From: Malacoraja senta
Lineage: Eukaryota
Assembly (NCBI GenBank): GCA_038087875.1
Contig: CM075996.1
Coordinates: 5,892,001 to 5,956,000 of the forward strand
Length of the DNA: 64,000 nt
Direction of reading: 5' to 3'
A program made the translations under genes and the position numbers. Each line of letters begins with the position of its first letter. The stretch's first letter is position 1. The notes beneath the pieces are model-generated. The model was not told the origin of the DNA. It made no database searches and saw nothing but the letters and a program-made list of their open reading frames with translations. Positions 6,389 to 48,018 of this stretch are shown here, one piece after another.

Positions 6389-8270
6389 GTAATGGTGTGG
6401 TGCTCGCCGTCACCCAAACCCACCAAGTTACTACTTTCCGGAAGTTTCTGTTATGTTTGTACAGTTGGAGAATTGGGAATTGCATTCGCAGAAATCACAA
6501 CAGAAATCACCACTTCATATCTCCATTAGTTCCTGTCCATAATTGCCCCAGAGGAGTTGAGGGTATGAGCTGCTGGAGTGGTGTTGTGGAGGTAGCATTG
6601 TGCTGTTGGCAGGGAGTGCTCAGAGCCTTTGGCCATAATGGATCAGGGAGCAACTTCATATTTCCAGGTCAGGATGATGTGCTGTTGGGAGGGGATCCTG
6701 CAAGTGGCGGTGCACCCAGCAACTGCTGCCCCCTGCTACTTGTGGGTAGACGTTGCAGGTCTGACAGGGGTTGTCGAGAAGCTTTAGGCAGGGGTGGCAA
6801 CGTGCCTGCAGTGGTTCACATCTGTGGAAAAGCCTGGGTTGATGTTTTTCAGAAATGTCCTGCACCCGATTGAGTCCGTTAACACCGCCTACACTGGTTA
6901 CCCTTCAGAAGAAAAGACGCAATGTGCTGGAGTAACTCAGCGGGTCAGGCAGCATCTCTGGAGAACATGAATGGGTGACGTTTCAGGTTGGGATCCTTCC
7001 TCAGACTAATTGTGGCAATAAGTGTGTGAAAAGGAACTGCAGATGCTGGATTATACCGAAGATAGATACAAAGTGCTGGAGTAACTCAGCGGGTCAGGCA
7101 GCATCTCTGGAGGAAAAGAATGGGTGACGTTTCAGGTTGGGACCCTTCCTCCAGACTGATTATGGTAATATTGATCAGTGGTCCTGGGGTGGACTCCCTC
7201 ACCATTCCACTTTCAGTCTGAAGGATGCCGTACCGAAATGTCACGCATCCTTTCCCTCCAGAGATGCTGCCTGACCCGCTGAGTTACTCCAGCACTTTGT
7301 ATCTATCTTTGGATTTTGGCAATAAGTTGATTGGTAAGAGGGCTGATTGATAGATAGACAAGAAGGTGAGCGAATGGAGTTGAAATTGTCAGGGTTGAGT
7401 TGGGAGGAAATGTTTTTGGAAAGTTGGGTGCAATCCAATGGGAGAATGGGATGGCAATTTGCCAATGAGAGCGTTTCAAGGTTAGTTGGAAATCATGGAG
7501 GTGAATTGCAGGAAAAGGCCGACTAACTTCTCAGGAATGTTTCTACGGCTATTTGGGTTCAGTTCAACTGTTCTTTTGGGATAGAAATTTGGGATTTTGT
7601 TTGGGGCTGTGACTTAGCAGAATATTAATGCTTGAAAGGAAAATAATTTAAAGAGTTCCTGTTCTTTTGGATAAGTCTATCTTCCCATTAAAGAAAAAGA
7701 CACAAATTGCTGGGGTGAGTCAGCGGGTCAGGCAGCATCTCTGGGGAACATGGATGGGTGACGTTTCGGGTCGGGACCCATCCTCTGGCTGATTATGGTA
7801 ATATTGATCATTGGTCCTTAGGTGGACCCCTCACCATGGCTGAGCAATGGGGCAAGAGACATCCATCCACCTCTTGCTTACACAGCCGAGTGTGCAAGAG
7901 GCCTTTCCCCTCCCTCCAAACCCCCTCCCCCCCCCCACACAAGTGATCACCCTGCGAAATAAACACTCCTTGATTGCTGGAGCAGGTTGTGTGATCGGGG
8001 AGATGTAGCTTCTTCCAGGCTGAAGGAACCGGGGCCAATTTTGCTCCCGACCTTCTGATCATTCCTTCGGGTTAAGCACAACACCAAGCTGGAGAACGTG
8101 ATGCAAAGAATGGAATGATATGAAGATGTTTGACCAGAGATCAATGTAAGATCTACAGTATACAATGCATTAAAGAACCTTCTGCTTCATACGGACCATT
8201 TTTAATGCTTGCTATGTTGGGGCAGGTGGAAACTAGAACCATACTGGACATGCAAAACCTTTCCAGCATT

Positions 8271-8408
8271 CTTCTTCTTGCGTGTGGCGTGCACAGCCTA
8301 AAGTTGTAGGACAACTTGTTCTATTTGATCTTATTTGTTTGTGCACACCAGGTTGATTGCATTCGTCGAAACAGGGCGGACCACGTGAAGGTTGCAATCT
8401 CCCACCCC
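8271..8408 (-). mobile_element. Short SINE headed by an HDV/CPEB3-like ribozyme fold, (AAG)n tail; copy 1
   Basis: TSD TTTCCAGCATT (8260-8270) / TTTGCAGCATT (8409-8419); 5' 54 nt forms a nested double pseudoknot; second copy at 9650-9786. Confidence 0.85.
8355..8408 (-). ncRNA. Minimal HDV-like (CPEB3-type) self-cleaving ribozyme, predicted
   Basis: GGGGUGG-GA-GAUUGCA-ACC-UUCACGU-GGU-CCGCCCU-GU-UUCGA-CGAA-UGCAAUC: P1 with G1-U wobble, P2 7 bp, P3 3 bp, L3 UUCACGU, J4/2 CGAA. Confidence 0.8.
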
Positions 8409-8565
8409 TTTGCAGCATTGATATTAGACAATAGACAATAGGTGCAGGAGCAGGTACACAAAAATGCTGGAGAAACTCAGCGGGTGCAGCAGCATCTATG
8501 GAGCGAAGGAAATAGGCAACGTTTCGGGCCGAAACCCTTCGTCAGACTGCCAGCACCGCCATTCA

Positions 8566-9649: not shown

Positions 9650-9786
9650 CTTCATCGTCTTGCGTATGGTGTGCACAGCCTAAAGTTGTAGGTCAACTTG
9701 TTCTATTTGAACTATTTGTTTGTGCACGGTTTGTTTGCATTAGTCGAAACAGGGTGGACCATGAGAAGGTTGCAATCTCCCACCCC
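9650..9786 (-). mobile_element. Ribozyme-headed SINE, copy 2, inserted into a Penelope-derived repeat
   Basis: Perfect 11-bp TSD AATGCTGGAGT (9639-9649 / 9787-9797); homologous to 8271-8408. Confidence 0.85.
9733..9786 (-). ncRNA. Minimal HDV-like ribozyme, predicted, copy 2
   Basis: GGGGUGG-GA-GAUUGCA-ACC-UUCUCAU-GGU-CCACCCU-GU-UUCGA-CUAA-UGCAAAC; P1 U-G becomes U-A, catalytic C retained. Confidence 0.7.
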
Positions 9787-19100: not shown

Positions 19101-22100
19101 TGCTGTTCAACGTTTTATGTTTTATTGAATATTCATAACTTTGCGCTACTTGAGAGTCACCGTGATGAAGCTCCAATTTCCATGATGTTTGACTCCATGG
19201 CATAATGGTTCCACAATGTCTTTGGCAGACATCGTCTATGTGGGGACCATTAACCCCCAGCACCTGAAGGTGGCCCTGCTCATGCTGCAGGCAGGCAAGA
19301 ATGTCCTCTGTGAGAAGCCCATGGCCATGAATCTGAAGGAGGTCCAACAACTCATCTCTGCCGCCCGGAAATGCAACCTCTTCCTCATGGAGGTGAGCGC
19401 ACTCGCAACAGCCGCTCAAAAACGCTACGCCGGAAACAGACGAGGTGGGAGCTAGAAGTTTAGTTCAGAGATACAGCGCGGAAACAAACCCTTCGACCCA
19501 CCGAGTCCATGCCGACCAGCGATCCCCGTACACTAGCACCCTTCCACACGCTGGGAACAATTTACATTTTTACCAAAGCTAATTAACCTACAAACCTGTA
19601 CGTCCTTGGAGTGCAGGAGGAAACTGGAGCACCCGGAGAAAACCAACGCAGGTCATTTGAATAACCGGAAGTTCAATAATTTCCCATTTCTAGTGCCTGA
19701 CACTCACTAACAAAGCAGGAATTAGAAAAATGAGTAAAACTATCTCTATATTACCCCATCATCCATTCCCATGGTTGGTACAGCAAGGGGAAATTACATA
19801 GCTTCCTGCCAAAACAAAAATTCAACATTGGTTAGATTAAACTGTCCATTGCTCCCTTGTGCAAAATAATTAAGTTCTCTATCTGCAACATCCTAAACAT
19901 ATTGTAAATGTCTGTCCTGCTGAGTTACTTTTGCAGAGATGCTGCATGTCCCACGGAGTTACTCCAGCATTTTGTGTCTATCTTCGGAGTAAACCAGCAT
20001 CTGCAGTTCCTTCCGACACAAATGTTCATACACAACTGCTTTGTAGATTAGATTCCAGAATATCAGAAATCAGAAAGATTATATGCTGTATGCGACGGCT
20101 GATGGGGTGCACAGCGAGGACAGGGGGGACTCTGTCCCTGTTACAAAATGGGAGGAGGGGGAGCAAGAGCGGAGCTGCAAGATATCGAGGAAACCCTTGT
20201 GAGAGCCTCATCTATAATGGAAGAGGGGAACCCGTTCCCTAACGAATTAGGACATCTCCGATGACATGGTATGGAACACCTCACCTTGGGCACAGATGCA
20301 GCGTAGATGAGGAATTGGGAGTAGGGGATAGAGTCTTTACAGGACGCGGGGTGGGAAGAAATGTCATCAATGGGAGTCGGTGCGTTTATAATATATACAG
20401 TTGATAGTTTGTCTGTTGTGATGGAGACGGTGACATTACGAAACCGTAGGGAGATGTCGGAGAGGGTCCGTGTGAATTTTAGTGCAGGATGGAGATTAGT
20501 ATTAAAGTTAAGTCGGTGAGTTCTGCATGGGTGCAGGAGGTAGCACCGATGCAGTCGTCAATGTAGCGGAGGTAGAGTTTGGGGATAGGGCCACTGTACG
20601 CCTGGAACAGCGATTGTTCGACGTACCCTACAAAGAGTCAGACATAGCTGGGGCTAATAGCTACACCTTGGATTCGGAGGAAGTGGGAGGAGTTGGAGAA
20701 GTTGTTATGGGTAAGGTAGGTCGAGGAAAAAACAGTGGACTTTAAGACCTTCCTAGTGGGGGATGGAGGTATTACAGGCATAGCCCTTTTCAGCATCAAA
20801 AGCATCTACATGAGGCACTGCATCAAGAAGGCAACATCTATAATCAAGGATTCCCCCCCATCCAGGCCATGCCCTCTTCTCGCTGTTACCGACAAGCAGG
20901 AGGGACAGAGGCTTGAAGTCCCACACACTTAATTTCAAGGACACCAGTTACCCTCAGCAATCAGGTTCTTGAACCGACCTGCATAATCTTAATCCCATCT
21001 CAGCAACGGAACACTAGATCACCTCTTGAACTAGTTTTCTAATTGTTGGAGTAAAGAGGTCCTTCTGCAGTTGTACAGGGCCTCGGTGAGACCACATCTG
21101 GAGTATTGTGTGCAGTTTTGGTCTCCTAATTTGAGGAAGGACATCCTTGCTATTGAGGTAGTGCAGTGTAGGTTCATAAGATCATAAGTAATAGGAGCAG
21201 AATTAGGCCATTCAGCCCATCAAGTCTACTCTGCCATTCAATCATGGCTGATCTATCTCTCCCTCCTAAATCCAGTCTCCTTCCTTCCCTCCATAACCTC
21301 AAGACACCTGTACTAATCAAGAATCTATCCTGATATATCTTGGTGTAATCCCCAGGATGGTGGGACTGTCATGTGAGGAAAGATTGGAAAGACTGGGCTT
21401 GTATTCAGTGGAATTTAGAAGGATGAAGAGATCTTATAGAAACGTATAAAATTATAAAAGGACCTGACAAGCTGGATGCAGGAAAAATGTTCCCCATGAT
21501 GGGAGAGTCCAGAACCAGGGGCCACAGTCTAAGAATACAGGGGAGGCGCCAATTGGAACTGAGACGAGAAAAAACGTTTTCACCCAGAGTTGGAATTCTC
21601 TGCCTCAGAAGGCAGTGGACGCTGATTCACTGGATGCATTCAAAAGAGTTAGATGGGGCTCTAGGGGCTCATGGCATCAAGGGATAATGGGGAGAAGGCA
21701 GGCATAGGTTACTGATTGTGGATGATCAGCAATGATCACAATGAATGGTGGTGCAGGCTCAAAGGGCCAAATGGCCTCCTCCTGCACCTATTTTCTATCT
21801 TTTCTATTTCACAGTGATTTTTTTCTTGCAGTCTTTTCTTTTGGATTTACATGCAATTTATGAGTAATTTATGTTTTTGTGTGGTGTCTGAGTGTATATG
21901 CTACAAGCAAGATTTTTATCGATCCTGTACCTCTACAATAACAATGTGCATATGACAATAAACTGGACTTGGGATCCAATTTTCTCAAGACACGCAAGAC
22001 TATGGCATTGGGATCTGGAACCATGCATGTCTGCAGGTTGCAATTCAAATGCTAAACTAAATTTGACTCGTTAAAACAAGGTCACAGGCTTCCATTTATT

Positions 22101-24891
22101 ACATCTTCCCGACACGGGTCCTTTTGAGTTTTGTCTGTCATGTTTACAGGGTCTTTGGACACGGTTCTTCCCGGTCTCCCACAAGATTCGGCGTCTACTG
22201 TCTATCAATAATGTTGGAGAGATTAAAATGGTGAGGGCAGAGTTTGGCACGTGGATGCTGGGAACACCACGGCTGGTGGAGAAGGAGTTGGGTGGAGGAG
22301 TACTCTTGGACATTGGCTGCTACTGCCTACAGTTTGTCTGCATGGTGTTCAATGGCGAGAAGCCAGACTCTGTCCACGCCACAGGATTCCTCACGGAGAA
22401 AGGCAAGTGTGCAATGGACCGCTCTCCAAAGAGCAGTTCAAACCAAGCTCTCCCTTCCTCTATCCATATCGTTCTGAATCTGATAGTTTATCTGTCCACT
22501 GGGAGCAAGCTTCCTGATGCCATCTTACCTCTTGTATCGCTGCAGGTGTTGACGAAACAGTGACCATCATAATAAAGTACTCCAGAAAACGCATGGCCAT
22601 AGTAACTGTAACTATGGCATCACAGCTTCCCAACCAGGCAATCATCATTGGTACAAATGGCACAATCACGGTAACTCTCTCTACCTTTATACTGTGTACA
22701 ATACCATTCCTTGCTTTTGGATCCGTGTTGCTCTTACCCAAAACTGGCAGCTGCAACGTCTGTTGAGATTTGATGTTCTTTTCCCAAGAGATCATTAGGC
22801 TCAAAGTTCACTCTGTAGGACAGTTTTAGTCATGGGCTGGACACATGAATGCCATAGAGTGATACAGTATGGAAACAGGCTCTTCGGCCAACATGTCCCA
22901 GCTACACTAGTCCCACCTGCCAGCATTTGGTCCATATCCCTCCAAACCTGTCCTATCCACTTACCTGTCTGTTTCTTAAATGTTGGGATAATCCCTGCCT
23001 CAACTACCTCCTCTTGTTCCACACCATTTGTGTGAAAAATGTTACCCCTCAAATTCCTATTCAATCTTTCCCCTTCACCTTAAACCTATGTCCGCTGGTC
23101 CCCGATTCACCTACTCTAGGCAAGACTGAGCATCTACCTGATCTATTCCTCTCATCATCTTATACACCTCTATAAGATCACCCCTGAACCTCCTGTGCTC
23201 CAAGGTATAGAGTTCCAGCCTACTCAACCTAATTATCACTTACCAACTTGCACGCAGTCCCCAGTTTACGATCGACTGTCTTATGTACAGCCTGTTGATA
23301 CAATCAAGTGTTTGCGAGACCTGCAGGATGAATTTTCCAACTGCTGTAGGGCTGCAAGTGACTTTGTGACACCAACTGAATCTTGCAACCTTGAACCCAG
23401 GAAGAATACATTCTAGTTAACACTTTTACTTCAGAGATACAGCGCGGAAACTGGCCCACAGGGTTTTCACCGACTAACGACGCTACATTTATGAAACCAT
23501 ATACCTGCACCCCTCGTGCCCTGTTCTACAACAGTCCCCAGGGCTCTATCGTTTACCATGCAAGGCCTGTCCTGGTTTATCCTACCAAAGTGCAACAGCT
23601 CGCATTTACCTGTATCTACCACTTCTTGCCCCAGTTGATCCTGATCCCATTGTAACTGTAGATCACCCTCTTTGCAGTTCACAATACCACCAAATTTAGT
23701 GTCATCCACAAATTTGCCATCAACATTCACATTCTAATTATCAATATAAATAACAAACAATAGTGGACCCAGCTCCAATCTCTGTGGTACACAGGAAACA
23801 CAGATGAGAAATATTAATTTAACATCTCATCCAAATGGACTCATTGAACTTTCAGTGCAATTACCCCATTTAAATTGTAATTCACAAAATACTCCAGCTG
23901 TGGCCTTAGCAATGTTTCAGAGTTGTCTCAAGACCGCCATAAAATGCGAGTAGGATATGTGTAGGAAATGGGAAGGCTGTGGCCTAGCGTTTGGAGGAAG
24001 ATAGGAAAAGCAGAGTGACATATTGTGGGCAGACACACACACACAAACAAGACAAGACTTTTAGTTATATAGATGGCCAAATGGCTAGCTTACATGGGCA
24101 TCTTGGTAGGCATGGATGGGTTGGGCCAAAGGACCCGTTTCTGCTCTGTAAGACCATGAATTCAGCTTGGTCTAACCAATGTTTTATACAATGTCGGGAA
24201 TGCTACACCTTCTGCTCTGCCATTTATATTTTGTTCCAAGGTACCAGGGCACATGTGGTGTCCCACAAGCCTTATGGTCAATGGAGACAGAGAGGAGTTC
24301 CCACTGCCAACTCCATCTCAGCCCCTCAACTTCACCAACAGTACTGGCCTACGGTACGAGGCTGAGGAAGTAAGGCAGTGTCTTAAGAAAGGTAAATGAG
24401 CATCTGCCAAATACCACTTGCCAGTGCCTCTAAACATGCCGCACATCCTGTAGGATGCCCAGCACGCAAACTCTGTCCTGTCCACCATAGGGAGACATCC
24501 ATTGATTTAACAGGACACTTTTCCAGTGGTTTGAATTAAGTTGGGGGGGGGGGGAGGGGGAAGAGAAGAAGAGAGGAGGATAGGAAAAGGGGACAATATG
24601 AATCAAAGCTTCAAAATTACTGGTCTACTGAACCACCACATTATAGAGAGAACCGTGCCCATTTTTACTGAACTACCAGATTCAGATTGCGTTCCTCGAG
24701 TCGGTGCGAGTTAGTTCTCACTGCTTGTAAACGGAACCACGTGTGTAAGATATTTTGAGAGCAATTGTGTTTATGTTGCAGGACTGAAGGAGTGCCCCCA
24801 GCTGACACTGGCCGACAGCGAGCTGATCATGAGCATTCTAGACGAGGCTCGGCAGCAGATCGGGGTTGTCTACTGTCAGGATACAGCTTGA
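15740..24891 (+). CDS. DHDH: Trans-1,2-dihydrobenzene-1,2-diol dehydrogenase (dimeric dihydrodiol / D-xylose 1-dehydrogenase, Gfo/Idh/MocA family), 7 coding exons, 334 aa
   Basis: Exons 15740-15829, 17910-18021, 19229-19392, 22150-22402, 22546-22670, 24241-24391 and 24782-24891 (90+112+164+253+125+151+110=1005 nt) splice in frame: [17 protein letters not shown]...[25 protein letters not shown]...[11 protein letters not shown]...[12 protein letters not shown]...[12 protein letters not shown]...[12 protein letters not shown]...[12 protein letters not shown]. All introns are GT-AG except intron 4 (GC-AG). Confidence 0.95.
15835..16122 (+). repeat. (GA)n / (GAGACA)n microsatellite at the start of DHDH intron 1
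   Basis: Direct inspection. Confidence 0.95.
16292..16570 (+). mobile_element. CR1 LINE 3' fragment in DHDH intron 1
   Basis: CCAGAACCAGGGGCCACAGTTTAAGAATAAGG...CTATTGTCTATTG tail. Confidence 0.8.
17193..17686 (-). mobile_element. CR1 LINE 3' fragment in DHDH intron 1
   Basis: [23 protein letters not shown]...[14 protein letters not shown]. Confidence 0.85.
18278..18742 (+). mobile_element. Penelope-like element fragment: GIY-YIG endonuclease C-terminus + pseudo-LTR
   Basis: [24 protein letters not shown]...[12 protein letters not shown]...PSGMN, followed by the hammerhead-like repeat at 18703. Confidence 0.8.
19455..19655 (-). mobile_element. HE1-type SINE, 5' truncated
   Basis: Reverse complement of the V-domain/CR1-tail sequence (GGAAACTGGAGCACCCGGAGAAAACC; GATACAGCGCGGAAAC). 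Confidence 0.7.
20085..20660 (-). mobile_element. Penelope-like element reverse transcriptase fragment
   Basis: Minus strand [32 protein letters not shown] (YIDD motif). Confidence 0.8.
21048..21805 (+). mobile_element. CR1 LINE 3' fragment with nested short CR1 insert
   Basis: GAGACCACATCTGGAGTATTGTGTGCAGTTTTGGTCTCC ([13 protein letters not shown]) to the 3' UTR. Confidence 0.8.
22850..23232 (-). mobile_element. CR1 LINE 3' fragment
   Basis: Homologous to 13205-13521. Confidence 0.75.
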
Positions 24892-25289: not shown

Positions 25290-29095
<3,806 letters not shown>

Positions 29096-40300: not shown

Positions 40301-43051
40301 GGACTCGGTGAGCCGACGGGCCTGTTTCCATGCTGTACCTCTAAACTAAACACTGAGTAGACTCACTCACTGAGTCTGTGAAGCTGGCTGACGGCTGCTC
40401 TTCCCACACCTGCTCGCTGTCCTGTCACAACTGTTTCTGTGACAGGAGAGCGAGCAGATACTATACTTGCTCATTCCGGACCTGCAAATAGTCCGGTGTA
40501 CAAACAGCTCTTAGGAATGGAACTTGGTTTAACCTGTGCATAAATGTTTGAAATTGGCAATTCCTGGTGAGAGGCATTAGCAAAGGAAATGGCATACTGT
40601 GTTACATAAATACACATGGAATACAAAAGCAGGTAATATAGGAAACACTGGTTAGCTAAGCCATAACTGGGGCTTTCGGTCCAATTCCCATCACTACATT
40701 TTAGGACGGTTGTGAAGGTCCTGTAAAATGTGCAAAAAACATTTGCTTTAATGGTTGCAGGGACTGGGGATTTCAGCTCCAAGATTAGGTTGAAGAAACT
40801 GAGGTTGTTCTCCTTGAAGGTTGGAAGATTTGCTCAAGGTGCACAAGGCTATGATAGATAGGATAAATGGAGATTAGCTGTTCCCATTACTAGACTTCAG
40901 GTCGGGGGGAGTTCCCACCGCCACGGGTACCATGTAATCCCGTGCTACCTGCTCCATGGTTGGATAGTCGGCGACTAAACTGTCTCCCTCACCTGGCTTG
41001 CCAGGTGAGGGAGGGGGCTGTGGACCCCCAGCAGGACCAAAAACAAGACGTGTCAAAGGGCGGATGAGCTCCTAGCGAGCCAACGGTAGGAGTTGCGATC
41101 GTTGTCGTACATAGCATTGTAAAACACCGTGCCCGTTGATGTTTTCAACGATCATGATGATGATTAGTAGATGATTGGGGAAGTGCGAGGACAGAACTCA
41201 AAGTAATAGGGAAAAATTCGGGATGATGCAAAGGCATTGTTTTCTCTCTAAAAACACAGTGATTATGATTTTAAACACAATCTTTAAGAAGGGTGTAAAT
41301 GGAGGTAATCAGGAATTTTTGAGAGGGAGATATATTTTGGGGGAGGTAATAAATTGCAGTGCTCTAGGGTAAGAGGGGAGATATAGGACTGATTCTTTTT
41401 TAAAAAAGCAATTGGCAAAATGGCTTCTGTTTGTACTATAAAAATGCTATTAAAAAAAGAACCTGAAAGATTGCATTTAATAAAAGAGAACAACAATGTT
41501 GAACCTACCGGTGTGGACAAACATGTGCTTGGCATAGTTCTGTCTGGAGCTGAAAGTTTTCCCACACTGCGTGCATCCGTAGGGTTTTCTTTCGGCATCA
41601 CTGGAAATCGCTGGAACTGCCTGGCTTCCATCTGGGAATACCGGGGGATTCTGGCACGAGGGCTGTGCTGGAATGCTGGACACAGACGTCTGGGAGGTGG
41701 AGGCCAATGGTGGGAGATGATGGGACTGAGTAAGGCCCATTTGATAAAGGCTGCGGTGAGTAGTTGCGCCGGCTCCAGTGGGGTCTTCTTCAACATCATA
41801 TTGTGCAGAACAGCCCTGGTTACGTAGGTTGGATTGCATGGTCGAACCTGGGAGAAAGTCTTGCATGAATGTTGAAGGCCGCGGAAAAGAAGCATCAAGC
41901 TGCGACTTGCAGTCCGCTTTGCGATTTTGCGGTATGGCAGTGTCCTTCTCCTCCTTCTCTCCCTGCCAAAAGGACTTCAGTTCTTCTGGTAAGAGATCAC
42001 TGGCATTGAAAAATTCCATCTCATCTCCTTTGCTGCTCAAATTCAGATGACCAGCAGAGTCTCGTCGGTCCTCCAGTGCACTCTGGTTGGGGTTAAACGC
42101 ATTCGCCTCAGTAATTTCCTCGGTCTGTTCGTCTTGGTTGCCTTGCTGTGCGATTTGGTTGGAGACGGTTCGGACAGCGATGCTCTCGCCACAGTAAAGG
42201 AGATCATCGTCTTCTTCTTTGATGGTCACTTGACTTCCGTCAGCCATTTGAAGTCTGATTGGCTGCCGTTGCTTGCGGCTATGACTGCCCTGTGACAAAA
42301 GCCCCATCTCGGGCCGCTGGTTGGCTGCAGTATTGTACCAGATTCCACGCACCTCATTATTGCGGCCAGTCTCCATTAGAGTCAGGTTCTCCTGGTCGGT
42401 TATGACCTGCTCTCCAACTCCCTTCTGACGTGCTAATATTTGTTGCCTGCACAGAATGGGGACCATTTCTTCTGCCTTGTACCCACCATCACCTGTGGCT
42501 GTGTTCTTTGAACCTCCCTGTACAAAGTCAAACTCTCTCTCAGCAGTGTGGGGTGACAATGCTGTTTCAATAAAACCCATGGGAAACTTGTGGATCTGGT
42601 CGCCAGTGTTCTGGCAAAGACCCGCTTCCTTCTCATCGGAGAGGTCCATCTTTTGCTGGTCCCCCTGAGCTTTTTGTTGGGCATTTTGTGAAATGATCCG
42701 TGTGCACTCGTCGATTATGGTTTTAATCTGAAGGACACTCGCTGCCGTGAGGATCTGCAAAGCCTCCACATGAGAGACCATCAGTGAGCCACTATACATA
42801 AAATCCACTAGTCGTCGCAGAGTCTGGGCTGAGACCAGAGGTGGGACCTCAATCTCGCTGTAACCCAACAAGAGTTTATCGTGGAAAAAGGGGCTAGCTG
42901 CAGCCAAGACACAGCGGTGGGCTCGGAGAGCTGTGTTATGGATACGTACGGTTACATCGCAGAAATGACCACCCAGGCGCTGCGAGTTCAGCGTCTCCAG
43001 AAGGGACCTGCTGAAATTCTGAAGGTTGATGCTATGAAGTTGCTCAGCCAT
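37320..43051 (-). CDS. ZBTB45: Zinc finger and BTB domain protein 45 (ZBTB20/45 family), 2 coding exons, 599 aa, BTB + 4 C2H2 fingers
   Basis: Exon 43051-41509 ([37 protein letters not shown]...[26 protein letters not shown]) splices GT-AG to 37576-37320 ([35 protein letters not shown]...[16 protein letters not shown]). [16 protein letters not shown] and four fingers favour ZBTB45 over ZBTB20. Acceptor at 43080-43081; probable non-coding exon 1 donor at 44153-44154. Confidence 0.88.
39599..40350 (+). mobile_element. HE1-type (V-SINE) tRNA-derived SINE, split by the Harbinger insert
   Basis: Head GGCAGCATGGTGGTGCAGTGGTAG...GCCTTA, body GTACGGAGTTTGTACGTTCTCCC...CTCCGGTTTC, CR1-like 3' end GGGCCTGTTTCCATGCTGTA and CTAAA tail. 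Confidence 0.75.
39637..40125. mobile_element. Harbinger-type non-autonomous element, right end lost, inserted in an HE1 SINE
   Basis: Starts TTA|AGGGGCTGTCCCAC like the MITE at 1268; interrupts the HE1 tRNA-like head. Confidence 0.65.
40895..41162 (+). mobile_element. Structured short retroelement with (ATG)n tail (RTE/RTEX-related SINE?)
   Basis: Near-TSD ATTACTAGA / ATTAGTAGA interrupting an old CR1; several strong hairpins. Confidence 0.55.
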
Positions 43052-44049
43052 TCTGCTCTGTCTCACTGCACAAGTCAACCTGCAAACCAGAATCATAGAA
43101 ATCACAGAAAGTTTACCATGCAGGCTATACAGCCCGTCATCTAAATGTCAGCTGTAAAAGAACTGCCCAGTCTAATCCTGTCCTCCAGTACTAAATTGGT
43201 AGTCCTACAGATCACGCCTCTTCAAATGGATATCCAAATTCTTTATGGCTTCTATTTCCATCTTCTTTTCAGACATGGAGTTTCAAATTCTTAACATTCT
43301 AACATTCCCCAAGGGATATTCTATCTTATAATTCAACATTATCTTACCCAACAGATGAGGAAAGAGGGAGAGGAGCAGGATGTGAACAGGGCAAACAATA
43401 ATAGCGTGAATGGGAGGGGAGATTGTAAATATCGAGAAAGTTGTGGCAATAACGAATTAGGTGGGAGAGTGGGGAGATGCTAGATATAGGGCAAGGCATG
43501 TGATCACAACCTGCCATCAGATATTAGCAAATCAACTTCACTTCAATTTCATTTGCTGGATGCCTTTCCAATAAACACTGCCAATCAAGCTTAAGCTCAA
43601 GGTAGACACAAAATGCTGGAGTAACTCAGCGGGTCAGGCAGCATCTCTGGAGCGAAGGGACGGGTTGGAAAGAAGGAATGGGTGACGTTTCGGGTCGAGA
43701 CCCTTCTTCAGACTCATGTCAGGGGAGGGGGCTTAAGCTGACACCAGCCTGACCCACTAAGTAAATCCAGCACTTTTATTTCTTGTGGATCTTCTGCACC
43801 AAGGCTGAGGACTCTTTACTGAGGCTGTGGCAGTGCCATCCGTGCCCTGGCTGCCATCTAACAGAGCCTCCCCTGGGCCATTCATGGAGGCTGCAATTGG
43901 ACAATAAGTTGCAGACCCATAAGGAAGGATATGGACCCTTTAACAGGTCGGTGGATTAAGGAGGGATATGGACCCTTTAACATGTCGGTGGGAGGGAGGT
44001 TAAGGTGGGATATGGCCCCCTTTATCAGGGTGGAGGGGGGATTAAGGTG

Positions 44050-44500: not shown

Positions 44501-45101
44501 GAGTGAGGCAGAGAGCGCGCAGGGAGGGAGGGAAGGAAAGAGGGAGGGTGGAGGCTGGCAGGAGGCGAAGGGAAGGATAGAAGTGGGAGGGAGAGAAGTG
44601 GGAGGGAGAAGACAGGCAGGAAAGGAGGGAGGGAGGGGTGCTGGCAGGAGGGGAAGAGAAGAAGAAAAGTGGGAGGGTGAAGGATGGGAGGATGGGGAAA
44701 GGAGGAGGGGGAAAGAAGGGCAGAGACCAGAGCAGGGAGGGGGGCTTGCGGAGAGCAAATGACCCTTGTCATCATCACCATAGCTGCCCCTCACCCCAAC
44801 CTCCCTTCTTCTCTTGTCTATGGCCACCCCTCTTTTCCCGTTTGCTGCCCTGCTCCCCCACACCCCTTTGGTTGCCTCTCTCTTTCCCACCCCCCACTTT
44901 GCTGTCCTCTTGACTCCCTGTCTACTGCCCATGTCTCCCCTCCTCCCTCGCCTTCCCTTTTGGCCCTATGACCACTGTTGTCTCCTTACCTTGCCCCTCT
45001 TTAATGGCCAGTTTGGGGAATAGGGAGGGATGTGGAATGATTATCATTATGAGACTGAAGCCTTCTGTGGTTTCTCTCAGGCTGCTCCCAAAGTGCCTGC
45101 C

Positions 45102-48018
45102 ATGCCTCGTCACTGCTCTGCTGAGGGATGCAGATCTAGGGACACAAAGGACTCGAGAATTAATGGCATCACCTTTCACAGGTCAGTACAGCAGCACCAG
45201 CACGACTAGCCTCATTCCTCCTCAGCATGCCTGCAATCTTCCATTTCACACTGCTTCAGTATGTTGTTTGATTTGTCTTGGTTTACACAGGTTACCAAAG
45301 AAAGGGAAAAGTCAGCGTGAGATCTGGTTGCTGAACTGTTGTCGAAAGAACCCGGATGGGACTGTTCCCTGGACTCCTTCCTCGCAATTTGTCTATTTCT
45401 GCTCAAAGCATTTTGAAAGACAGTGCTTTGAACTTGTGGGACTGAGGTAATATGCAGCATCAGTCTGACTGCTAATAGCTTAAGTGTTTAAAAAATGCGG
45501 TAGAATAGAGGATTGACTGTTCAAGGGGGACTGAACGCTCAATGGCCGTTTCTGGTCATGTTATTTTAAGTCTTCTTTCCACCTCCACACTAGCTTGTCT
45601 GTCCTGTACCTTCTCCGTTGCTATGTAGAGGTCAAGCGATAATTAAGAACAATACCATAAATTCTGCCTGGGTGTCTTACAACCAAATTTACATGAAAGT
45701 GGAATTTTCTAGTTTCAGGCAACGTCCTTTTGTTTCCTTATGTCTAGTCTTTGTCCACCTATCCGTGCATTCACCTATCACTTACAGGCTTGTCCTACCC
45801 CCACCTCTCTATGCAAGATTCCAGCAGCTGCAGTTCCTGATGTATCCATGCTGCAGTACTCTGTTCCTTACTCAGATGAAGATGCACAACTCTACCTGAG
45901 CTGACATGTCCCTGGTTTCTGTCCTCTCCCACGTCACCTGGAATCTCCTCGTCCCCAGCTCCCATTATTCTCCTCTTGTCCAACAATGGCGTGACAATTA
46001 CTTTGTCCCTGACCTTTCATACTTGGACTTTGATGTCTGACCTGAGTCTGGCACTTCGCACCCTCTCGTGCTTGTTGCAGTCCCTCAATTAAACAAAAAT
46101 CGTCTCGGCGTAATCTGTCCATTTTCAGTCTTGTTCCATGAAGATGACACAAAAGGAAGAAGAGTCTCGACCCGAACCTATTCTTTTTCTCCAGAGATGC
46201 TGCCTGTCCCGCTGAGTTACTCCAGCTTTTTGTGTCTATCTTTGGTTTAAACCTGAATCTGCAGTTCCTTCCTGCACAGAAGAATGTTGCAGTGTTGTTG
46301 TGTTCTGGCCTGTGACGTTCTGGTTGTGGGGAGGTCGTGGTCGGAGTTCATCGTTCACCTTCTGTTTTCGCAGTGGTTATCACCGGCTGCGCGATGACGC
46401 GGTCCCCACGTTGTTCCAACCGAGTCCTCGAGGAAAAGTGAAGTCGACCAGAGCAAACAGAGAAAAGGCAGCAGCACCAGTGGCCACCAGTGAATGGTGA
46501 GGGGTTGGTGCTTTAACATTCTTTCACCAAAAATCTGAGTTGTTTGCTCCCTTGCTGGCTCTTAGTGCTTTGAATGGCAGCAATCAGATGGTCAGTCCAT
46601 AAGAGTGTGTCCAGTCATTACCACCACTGGAGCAGAGATAATAAGAACCAATGTAAAGAATGTTCCCAGGCTGGCTGTGTAGCAGAATCAGGTTTTAGTG
46701 TTGATGCCTTCTTGAGTGAATATCATTGAATATTTGCTGTCAGATTATATCAGGACTTGAAGGCTTCAGCTTTATTCCATGGAGTGCAGAAGGCTGAGGG
46801 GTGATCTTATGGATGTGTATAAAATCACGAGAGGAATAAATAGGGTGAATGCGCAGAGTCTTTTACCCAGAGTAGGGGAATCAAGAACCAGAGGATATAG
46901 GTTTAAGGTGAGAGGGGAAAGATTTAATATGAACCTGAGGGGGAACGTTTTCAGACAGGGTGGTAGCTGTATGGAATGAGCTGCCAGAAGAGATTGTTGA
47001 GGCAGGTACTATAACAACATTTAAAAGGCACTGGACAGGTAAGTGGATGGGAAAGATTTAGGGGAATATAGGTCAAATGCGGGCAAATTAGACCATCTTA
47101 GAAGGGGCATCTTGACTGGCATAGACGAGTTGGGCCAAAGGGCTTGTTCCATCAGAGAAGGGTCATGGGCGTGCTATTGAGACTGGCTGTGTCAGGAATA
47201 GCACTTGGGAAGGGGAGAAAATTGGCTTTGTTGCCTTGTGTGGTCACTGTCGAGCTTCCCCTGTGTTTAACTCCCCTCTTCTGTCCATCTCCTCCAGTCT
47301 CACTAACAATGCTGCTTTACCCGACGCGGATCTCGGGGACGCCACGTCCAGTTTGGAGGCGAGCTTCAGCAGTTCCCACGATGCTTCCACCTTTGTCCCA
47401 GATTATTCCGTTCTCCAAGCGAGGATGAGTGAAAGCATTTGCTCGAGCAATACGCTGCTCACCGAGGCCCCGCTGTGCTCGAGTCAGGCTGAGCTGGAGG
47501 CTTCTGTGCCCACTGTAATTTACCTGGTGGACACCGAGTCAAAGCCGGTGGAATTGGACAGCACCGAGAGTGAAGAGGAAGCCTGCATGAGCATCCTGTT
47601 GTCTCAGCCCGATGTGTTGACTGACCTCCCGGCCCACAGCCAGGAGGAGCTGCACGATTTTGGGACCCTCATTCCCATCGCGCTGTACATGGCACGCCTT
47701 CCCAGTGCGGCCATGAACCCTGGGGCCCACGTCGCGGTCGAGCACAGCTATACCGTGGGCTGCCCGCTGGTTTGGAAAAAGAGGGCGGAGGTCCTGAACG
47801 AGGCCTTTGAGAGGGTGAGCAAGGAGCTGCGGGCCAGCAAGAAGCGCGAGAGCCGGCTCAGGTCCCGCATCACCTCCTTCCTGAAAGCACGAGGCCGCGG
47901 GCTGCGGGGGCGGCGGGTGAAGCTGGGCTTGGCCAACCATCTGGCCCAGCCGGTGGAAGTGTTTGAGGTGCAGGTGATAAACGATGCTGTTGAACTGTGC
48001 AACCCAGTGACCTGCTGA
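45102..48018 (+). CDS. THAP7: THAP domain-containing protein 7-like, 4 coding exons, 359 aa
   Basis: Exons 45102-45181, 45291-45446, 46374-46496 and 47298-48018 (1080 nt): [31 protein letters not shown]...WLLNCCR...[32 protein letters not shown] (C2CH THAP domain with AVPTxF box), then HCF-1 binding motif EHSY and coiled coil WKKRAE...[12 protein letters not shown] as in THAP7. AATAAA at 48612. Orthologue versus paralogue is not resolved. Confidence 0.85.
46770..47150 (+). mobile_element. CR1 LINE 3' fragment in THAP7-like intron 3
   Basis: [16 protein letters not shown]...[14 protein letters not shown]. Confidence 0.8.

Follow-up and report, generated by a model that had tools for sequence, protein, structure and literature searches.

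A 138-nucleotide retroposon of Malacoraja senta with a predicted P4-less HDV-like ribozyme at its 5' end and its probable derivation from a Vingi-type LINE

What defines the 5' end of a retroposon of only 138 nucleotides that contains no ORF, and what moves it? This question is raised by an element on the minus strand of a 64,000-nucleotide stretch of Malacoraja senta DNA (hereafter, the window), which a first-pass annotation had described as a tiny SINE headed by a minimal self-cleaving ribozyme resembling those of CPEB3 and HDV. The reading favored here, to which we assign a probability of about 0.7, is that the element arose from a Vingi/Ingi-type LINE by internal deletion, cuts itself at its first nucleotide, G1, and is mobilized in trans. 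A copy would be transcribed by Pol II, either from an internal promoter or by read-through. In the transcript, nt 1-54 would adopt a P4-less HDV-like double pseudoknot and cut directly before G1, so that the 5' end is defined. The protein of the LINE would then bind the shared 3' end in trans, and target-primed reverse transcription would insert a new copy. Cutting at G1, combined with the small size of the element, would account for the predominance of full-length copies.

Table 1. Layout of the element and other features of the window (coordinates are those of the window; TSD, target-site duplication)
Feature	Element nt	Window position	Strand	Evidence or remark
Full bipartite non-autonomous retroposon, 138 nt	1-138	8271-8408	-	Unrelated flanks start at 8408 in contigs of four public runs, from four organisms
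Predicted P4-less HDV-like ribozyme	1-54	8355-8408	-	Fold parse and descriptor match
Remaining LINE 5' UTR, holding the 5' arm of the 11-bp stem	55-81	8328-8354	-	Matches LINE 5' ends in L315, L328 and L252
Family-specific linker, holding the 5' arm of the small hairpin	82-99	8310-8327	-	Chance-level matches only in 8 long LINE copies
LINE 3' end: last codons, TAG stop (8300-8298), 3' UTR, (AAG)n tail	100-138	8271-8309	-	Common to 29 of 30 LINE loci
Upstream copy of the 11-bp TSD		8409-8419	-	
Downstream TSD copy, one mismatch at 8263		8260-8270	-	Matching base there in one contig of public run X3
Second, more decayed copy		9650-9786	-	LINE-type A32/U45 head; L3 and P2 mutated; perfect 11-bp TSD
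Host-gene matches: RPS11-like exon with SNORD35, GFO/IDH/MocA oxidoreductase, BTB zinc-finger gene, weak THAP domain		26175-26609 (-), 28390-28476 (-), 19186-22560 (+), 41480-43147 (-), 44914-45447 (+)		

The annotation had described a non-autonomous retroposon starting at G1 of an HDV-like fold, and TSDs and ends shared with a LINE bear this out (Table 1). The 11-bp TSD that had been said to place the end exactly at G1 is less exact in this copy: its two repeats are identical at 10 of 11 positions (8412 differs from 8263) and, because two extra G residues follow the downstream repeat, this copy alone leaves the boundary ambiguous by 2 nt. It is the family that fixes the 5' end at G1. The first 100 places picked by their tail, hence without regard to the head, comprised 86 with a 5' end recognized by script, 5 LINE 3' ends and 9 shortened or rearranged copies; removal of two duplicates left 84 copies, one of which (L188) looks spurious. 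The TSD ends at G1 in 38 of these, 1-2 nt into the G run in 21 and 1-4 nt short in 15, and none was found in the remaining 10. The same four classes numbered 26, 17, 10 and 6 in a set of 59 copies picked by similarity, and TSDs in the family are mostly 10-13 bp long. The base preceding G1 is T in 49 of the 84 copies, compared with 27% in the background (p = 4e-9), which is a target preference. In three cases, L001 (second), L005 and L294, the copy was inserted into a different abundant repeat, each time at an identical position. Public sequencing matches amounted to 24 rows, from eight organisms and a metagenome, all of them contigs.

The 1.94-Gb genome contains 902 exact matches to a 42-nt core of the element and 2,452 matches to the tail pattern. 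As 13 of the first 100 tail matches hold the exact core, capture-recapture gives about 6,900 copies, a rough figure that assumes independence and takes in sister families. The 84 copies diverge on average by 5.9% from the family majority, and the second copy in the window is 88% identical to the first. A form of ~119 nt, with a 19-nt deletion between short direct repeats directly after P2 (e.g., L062 and L068), was seen at 17 of 100 places among the matches listed. The genes matched elsewhere in the window are ordinary host genes, and no Pfam match was obtained near 8-10 kb with the 55 open stretches that were searched. Another LINE family, with intact open frames of 1,277 codons at many places (L134, L138, L139, L145, L146), is apparently young.

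The helices, L3, the stub loop and C44 of the predicted ribozyme are all where the annotation had put them. P1 (8408-8402/8379-8373) runs for 7 bp from G1, with a G1.U36 wobble, and is followed by P2 (8399-8393/8361-8355), P3 (8392-8390/8382-8380) and L3 (8389-8383). After G37-U38, a 5-nt loop leads to C44 at 8365, the predicted catalytic C; P1.1 would consist of C22-G37 with U21.U38, and the predicted cleavage point lies 5' of G1 at 8408. When measured against the features of HDV-like ribozymes listed in PMC4836649, the head permits a nested P1/P2/P3 pseudoknot and contains U20 and G25 in L3, P1.1 and the sequence catalytic C-N-A-A. A P4 helix is absent, and the 5-nt unpaired loop in its place fits a minimal subtype. 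A relaxed HDV descriptor, run on both strands of the window, found this head as the one zero-mismatch site, and in 768,000 bases of Markov shuffles it gave no zero-mismatch match and 26 with mismatches. When the whole element is folded without pseudoknots, the result is unremarkable (z -0.85) and lacks P1. The small hairpin annotated outside the head is present, and a second stem has to be added, i.e., 11 bp between nt 59-69 and 114-124 (8340-8350 with 8285-8295), which joins sequence derived from a 5' UTR to sequence derived from a 3' UTR.

Both ends of the element were traced to a LINE. Nt 100-138, stop codon included, recur in five LINE 3' ends, whose coding part specifies a CCHC knuckle. 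Walking upstream from such ends led to a single-ORF element of ~3.1 kb with APE and RT domains, in which no RNase H match was obtained. The head sequence occurs in 6 of 14 long LINE loci, collinear with the body in three and inverted in three. In L328 (2.8 kb) and in the internally deleted L252 (1.6 kb), the head, ORF remnants and tail lie within one TSD. Inversion of the head relative to the body, as seen in L077, L219, L231, L245, L250, L319 and L323, fits 5' inversions during insertion. The element thus joins the 5' end (nt 1-81) and the 3' end (nt 100-138) of this one LINE of the same genome, and with its shared ends, its TSDs and its lack of an ORF it is a bipartite non-autonomous LINE of the SIDE/NARTc type. 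Since it is an internal-deletion derivative, its predicted ribozyme is the LINE's own 5' end. Mobilization by a LINE, as had been proposed, is consistent with a partner that shares not only the 3' end but the 5' end as well, and would presumably occur in trans. The linker (nt 82-99) has no clear source in the LINE and probably combines a short duplication with an inverted repeat of the 3' part.

Such deletions appear to have occurred more than once. Among 30 loci picked by a motif of the LINE 5' UTR, four run on as LINE, and the other 26, all short derivatives, show three further types of junction (11, 8 and 7 loci, the last comprising 6 plus 1 variant); the partner LINE therefore repeatedly shed head-plus-tail elements. 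Pairing of the two ends through the 11-bp stem may favor these internal deletions. The stem is completed by G61 in 66 of the 84 short-family copies, where the LINE has A. A search in which the bases after the head were negated gave 148 matches, and the 30 loci examined among them were deleted, truncated or rearranged short copies and included no LINE. The long LINE copies are about 84-92% alike. As no intact frame was seen in the 14 long loci, where the longest open stretch is 436 aa, the family looks like a past burst.

The partner had been annotated as RTE-like from its tail, a reading that finds no support here. The (AAG)n tail is common among the relatives of the partner, and the partner combines APE and RT domains with a C-terminal knuckle, C-x-C-x8-H-x4-C (weak zf-RVT match, E 0.003). 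RTE elements are not known to carry a C-terminal CCHC knuckle, which argues against an RTE partner. The LINE very likely belongs to Vingi instead, a name that is based on architecture (a single ORF, APE and RT, no RNase H match, about 3.1 kb) rather than on a tree with named reference elements. Its intact homologue P0001 (72% identical, 1019 aa) matches only APE and RT families. Vingi LINEs have been described with this same architecture (PMC13708176), size (Vingi-2_Gav measures 3,128 nt; PMC5786205) and proneness to internal-deletion derivatives (PMC13708176; PMC5786205; PMC5753468), a comparison made with published descriptions of Vingi.

The HDV-like head is shared by related LINEs. From 77 related metagenome loci, 28 were scanned upstream of the ORF. 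The descriptor found the fold in sense in 8 of the 28 (6 distinct), 157-384 nt before the match, and never in antisense; the other 20, some of which offer too little upstream DNA, gave no match. By eye, another four heads were recognized, in which P1 has 6 bp or L3 is enlarged. Heads missed by the descriptor include L330:424-565 (a long insertion in L3) and L363/L364:1297 and L400:1325 (6-bp P1). Over the whole length of all 77 loci, the descriptor gave several imperfect matches and one without mismatch, the latter within an ORF (L369). In L337, L351, L356, L363 and L364, the element is delimited by TSDs at G1 or at most 2 nt from it; for L339 and L330 no TSD was found. The heads lie directly before the ORF and have the same fold with different helix sequences, these cross-family changes being drawn from matches chosen for pairing.

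These heads bear on a different explanation, in which the head is mainly an internal Pol II promoter, or a promoter and a ribozyme in one like Pr77 of L1Tc, and G1 is a transcription start. A palindrome, CACGTG, spans L3 and P3 (8382-8387) and, as DNA, is an E-box, which would suit a promoter. The annotation had called the element promoterless, but the equivalent head of L1Tc and NARTc, Pr77, is both promoter and ribozyme (PMC4035085), and bipartite LINEs are thought to be transcribed by Pol II from their 5' sequences (PMC5786205). CPEB3 ribozymes, for their part, are reported to dimerize via an L3 palindrome (bioRxiv 2022.09.22.508989). However, distant LINEs keep the pairing of the full double pseudoknot although their helix sequences differ, which points to an RNA fold rather than a DNA motif, and this explanation is therefore considered unlikely, even if a dual role may apply.

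A self-cutting head would also be undermined if the loss of P4 had left a relic without catalysis, or with very slow catalysis, whose fold is retained to bind a protein or to protect the 5' end. All five relatives that were parsed have a P4 region, of 14-28 nt, so the loss is specific to the window lineage among those seen, and it could have crippled the ribozyme; moreover, P1.1 contains only one Watson-Crick pair. All pairs and key bases are kept in only 31 of the 84 copies, and no two-sided covariation was found within the short family. C44U occurs in 7 copies, against 5 each for other CpG sites, and its deficit relative to G45A (15) is not significant (p = 0.13, CpG-asymmetry test). Since C44U thus occurs at the neutral CpG rate, the genomic copies show no direct sign of selection on C44. 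Nevertheless, the autonomous LINE itself had a P4-less head and spread. Its head carries A32 and U45 (CUAA), whereas the window copy has G32 and G45 (CGAA), which is therefore derived, and C44, A46, A47, U20 and G25 prevail among the copies of either head type. The frequent variants, i.e., G8A (25 copies), G32A (28; U.G to U-A), G42A (15) and G45 to A or U (25), fall where the modelled fold should tolerate them, namely in J1/2, in the loop, at the second J4/2 base, or in P1 with the pair kept. A hairpin that might trap the catalytic C (G37-C44, GU-UUCG-AC) costs 1.7 kcal/mol and has a pair probability of about 0.05 in a pseudoknot-free model. A weak second P1.1 pair is compatible with fast cleavage (PMC13635239), and P4-less HDV-like ribozymes cleave in vitro (PMC10879173). 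Taken with these observations, a relic is even less likely than a promoter.

A conventional SINE that acquired a small-RNA head independently and ends in an RTE tail would account for the short length and the (AAG)n tail, but is highly improbable, as both its ends trace to a single LINE with a C-terminal CCHC knuckle, and tRNA and Rfam searches (the latter of the window and of 8200-8480) and a scan with A/B-box patterns matched nothing in the element, nor any tRNA in the window. The annotation had already remarked on the missing tRNA-like head; its term SINE is loose, since the strict use asks for a head derived from tRNA, 5S, 7SL or snRNA with a Pol III promoter.

The mammalian CPEB3 ribozyme, with which the head had been compared, has been conserved for more than 170 million years and is tied to memory in mice. 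The two agree in the register of nt 1-38, in G1.U36, in an identical L3 and in C22-G37 with U21.U38 (RF00622; PMC4836649; PMC9901934). They differ in the sequences of P1 (5-7), P2 and P3, and the window head lacks P4. By eye, 27 of 49 non-P4 positions agree with the Rfam CPEB3 consensus, and neither the window element nor the LINE head of L328 reaches the RF00622 cut-off of 35 bits. The likeness of this copy thus stands at the level of the family only, the CGAA motif being secondary.

The strong link with the origin of CPEB3-type ribozymes, for which the annotation had seen a possible relevance, comes from a relative instead. L356:1117-4292 is a full-length Vingi-like LINE of 3.16 kb from a metagenome, with an (ATC)n tail; it is flanked by a 14-bp TSD whose end lies one base ahead of G1. 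Its head matches RF00622 with 55.6 bits (E 2.4e-12; cut-off 35) and, by eye, is identical at 45 of the 49 non-P4 positions; its differences in L3 and J1/4 together change the U.U of P1.1 into C-G. Between families, heads agree at 21-39 of these positions (14 pairs), so this value lies outside the between-family range. The window head shares 38 of 49 with L339 and 24 of 49 with L356. L356 represents a single insertion, also present in L357 and L358, and has a 5'-truncated sister, L382; its flanks, its P4 and the ORF downstream rule out that it is the CPEB3 intron of a mammal. In the main segment its identity to P0001 is 37%, and in a quick-method tree of 43 RT pieces with an ingroup chosen by likeness to P0001 and without named references, it forms its own branch within the group holding the window's LINE. 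Other LINE families, from a Pfam endonuclease scan, served as outgroup only, and the RTs found in PDB were those of L1, R2 and a group II intron.

These sequence comparisons suggest that this LINE group supplied the head from which the CPEB3 ribozyme was domesticated; convergence of the two heads could also account for the match. Vingi has left traces in the human genome (X12_LINE; PMC5753468). The literature searched traces the CPEB3 ribozyme to no source, and a term search of PMC8233481 gave no mention of its origin or of a retrotransposon source. A TSD-bounded LINE with such a match makes an origin as a domesticated LINE head directly testable. A wider proposition is possible at somewhat less than even odds: that Vingi-type LINEs as a standard begin with an HDV-like ribozyme, that the active P4-less form of one lineage founded several vertebrate mini-retroposon families, that the mammalian CPEB3 ribozyme was domesticated from a LINE near the L356 lineage, and that this origin is not yet in print.

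In its bipartite construction the element resembles NARTc (derived from L1Tc), RIME (from ingi), the derivatives of Vingi-1_EE and the R2 SIDEs, which likewise lack an ORF and join LINE 5' and 3' ends by internal deletion, and an HDV-like ribozyme as 5' terminus has been shown for L1Tc/NARTc and R2 (PMC5786205; PMC4035085; PMC6765202). It is set apart by its vertebrate host, its length of 138 nt, its thousands of copies and a predicted ribozyme without P4. A short loop instead of P4 and a catalytic C as the first base of J4/2 are also found in the minimal drz-Mtgn and theta ribozymes, nearly 99% of which come from phages, often after tRNAs; the eukaryotes scanned in that study were human, mouse and protists only (PMC10879173). 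In contrast, the window head stands at the front of an animal retroposon, away from any tRNA or phage context, and has the U21.U38 of a CPEB3-type P1.1, and P4 was likely lost independently.

Bipartite LINE derivatives and 5' HDV-like ribozymes are known, and some non-autonomous SINEs use such ribozymes as well (PMC5786205; PMC13708176; PMC5753468; PMC4836649; PMC10879173; PMC6765202; PMC8256844; PMC9901934; PMC3391268; PMC4035085; PMC13635239; bioRxiv 2022.09.22.508989). Judged by titles and opening lines of abstracts, no paper found describes this family, reports a ribozyme in Vingi or derives the CPEB3 ribozyme from a LINE; older papers, supplements, Repbase or Dfam may list such elements. 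Within the literature searched, the P4-less form in a vertebrate retroposon is new, whereas the bipartite kind of element is not.

The thousands of vertebrate copies of a predicted minimal P4-less HDV-like ribozyme suggest a candidate job for it, i.e., setting the 5' end of a retroposon, and make many natural variants of the minimal head available for assay. Vingi elements are under development as tools for gene insertion (PMC13708176), and for this purpose a natural template of 138 nt marks out the minimal cis sequences.
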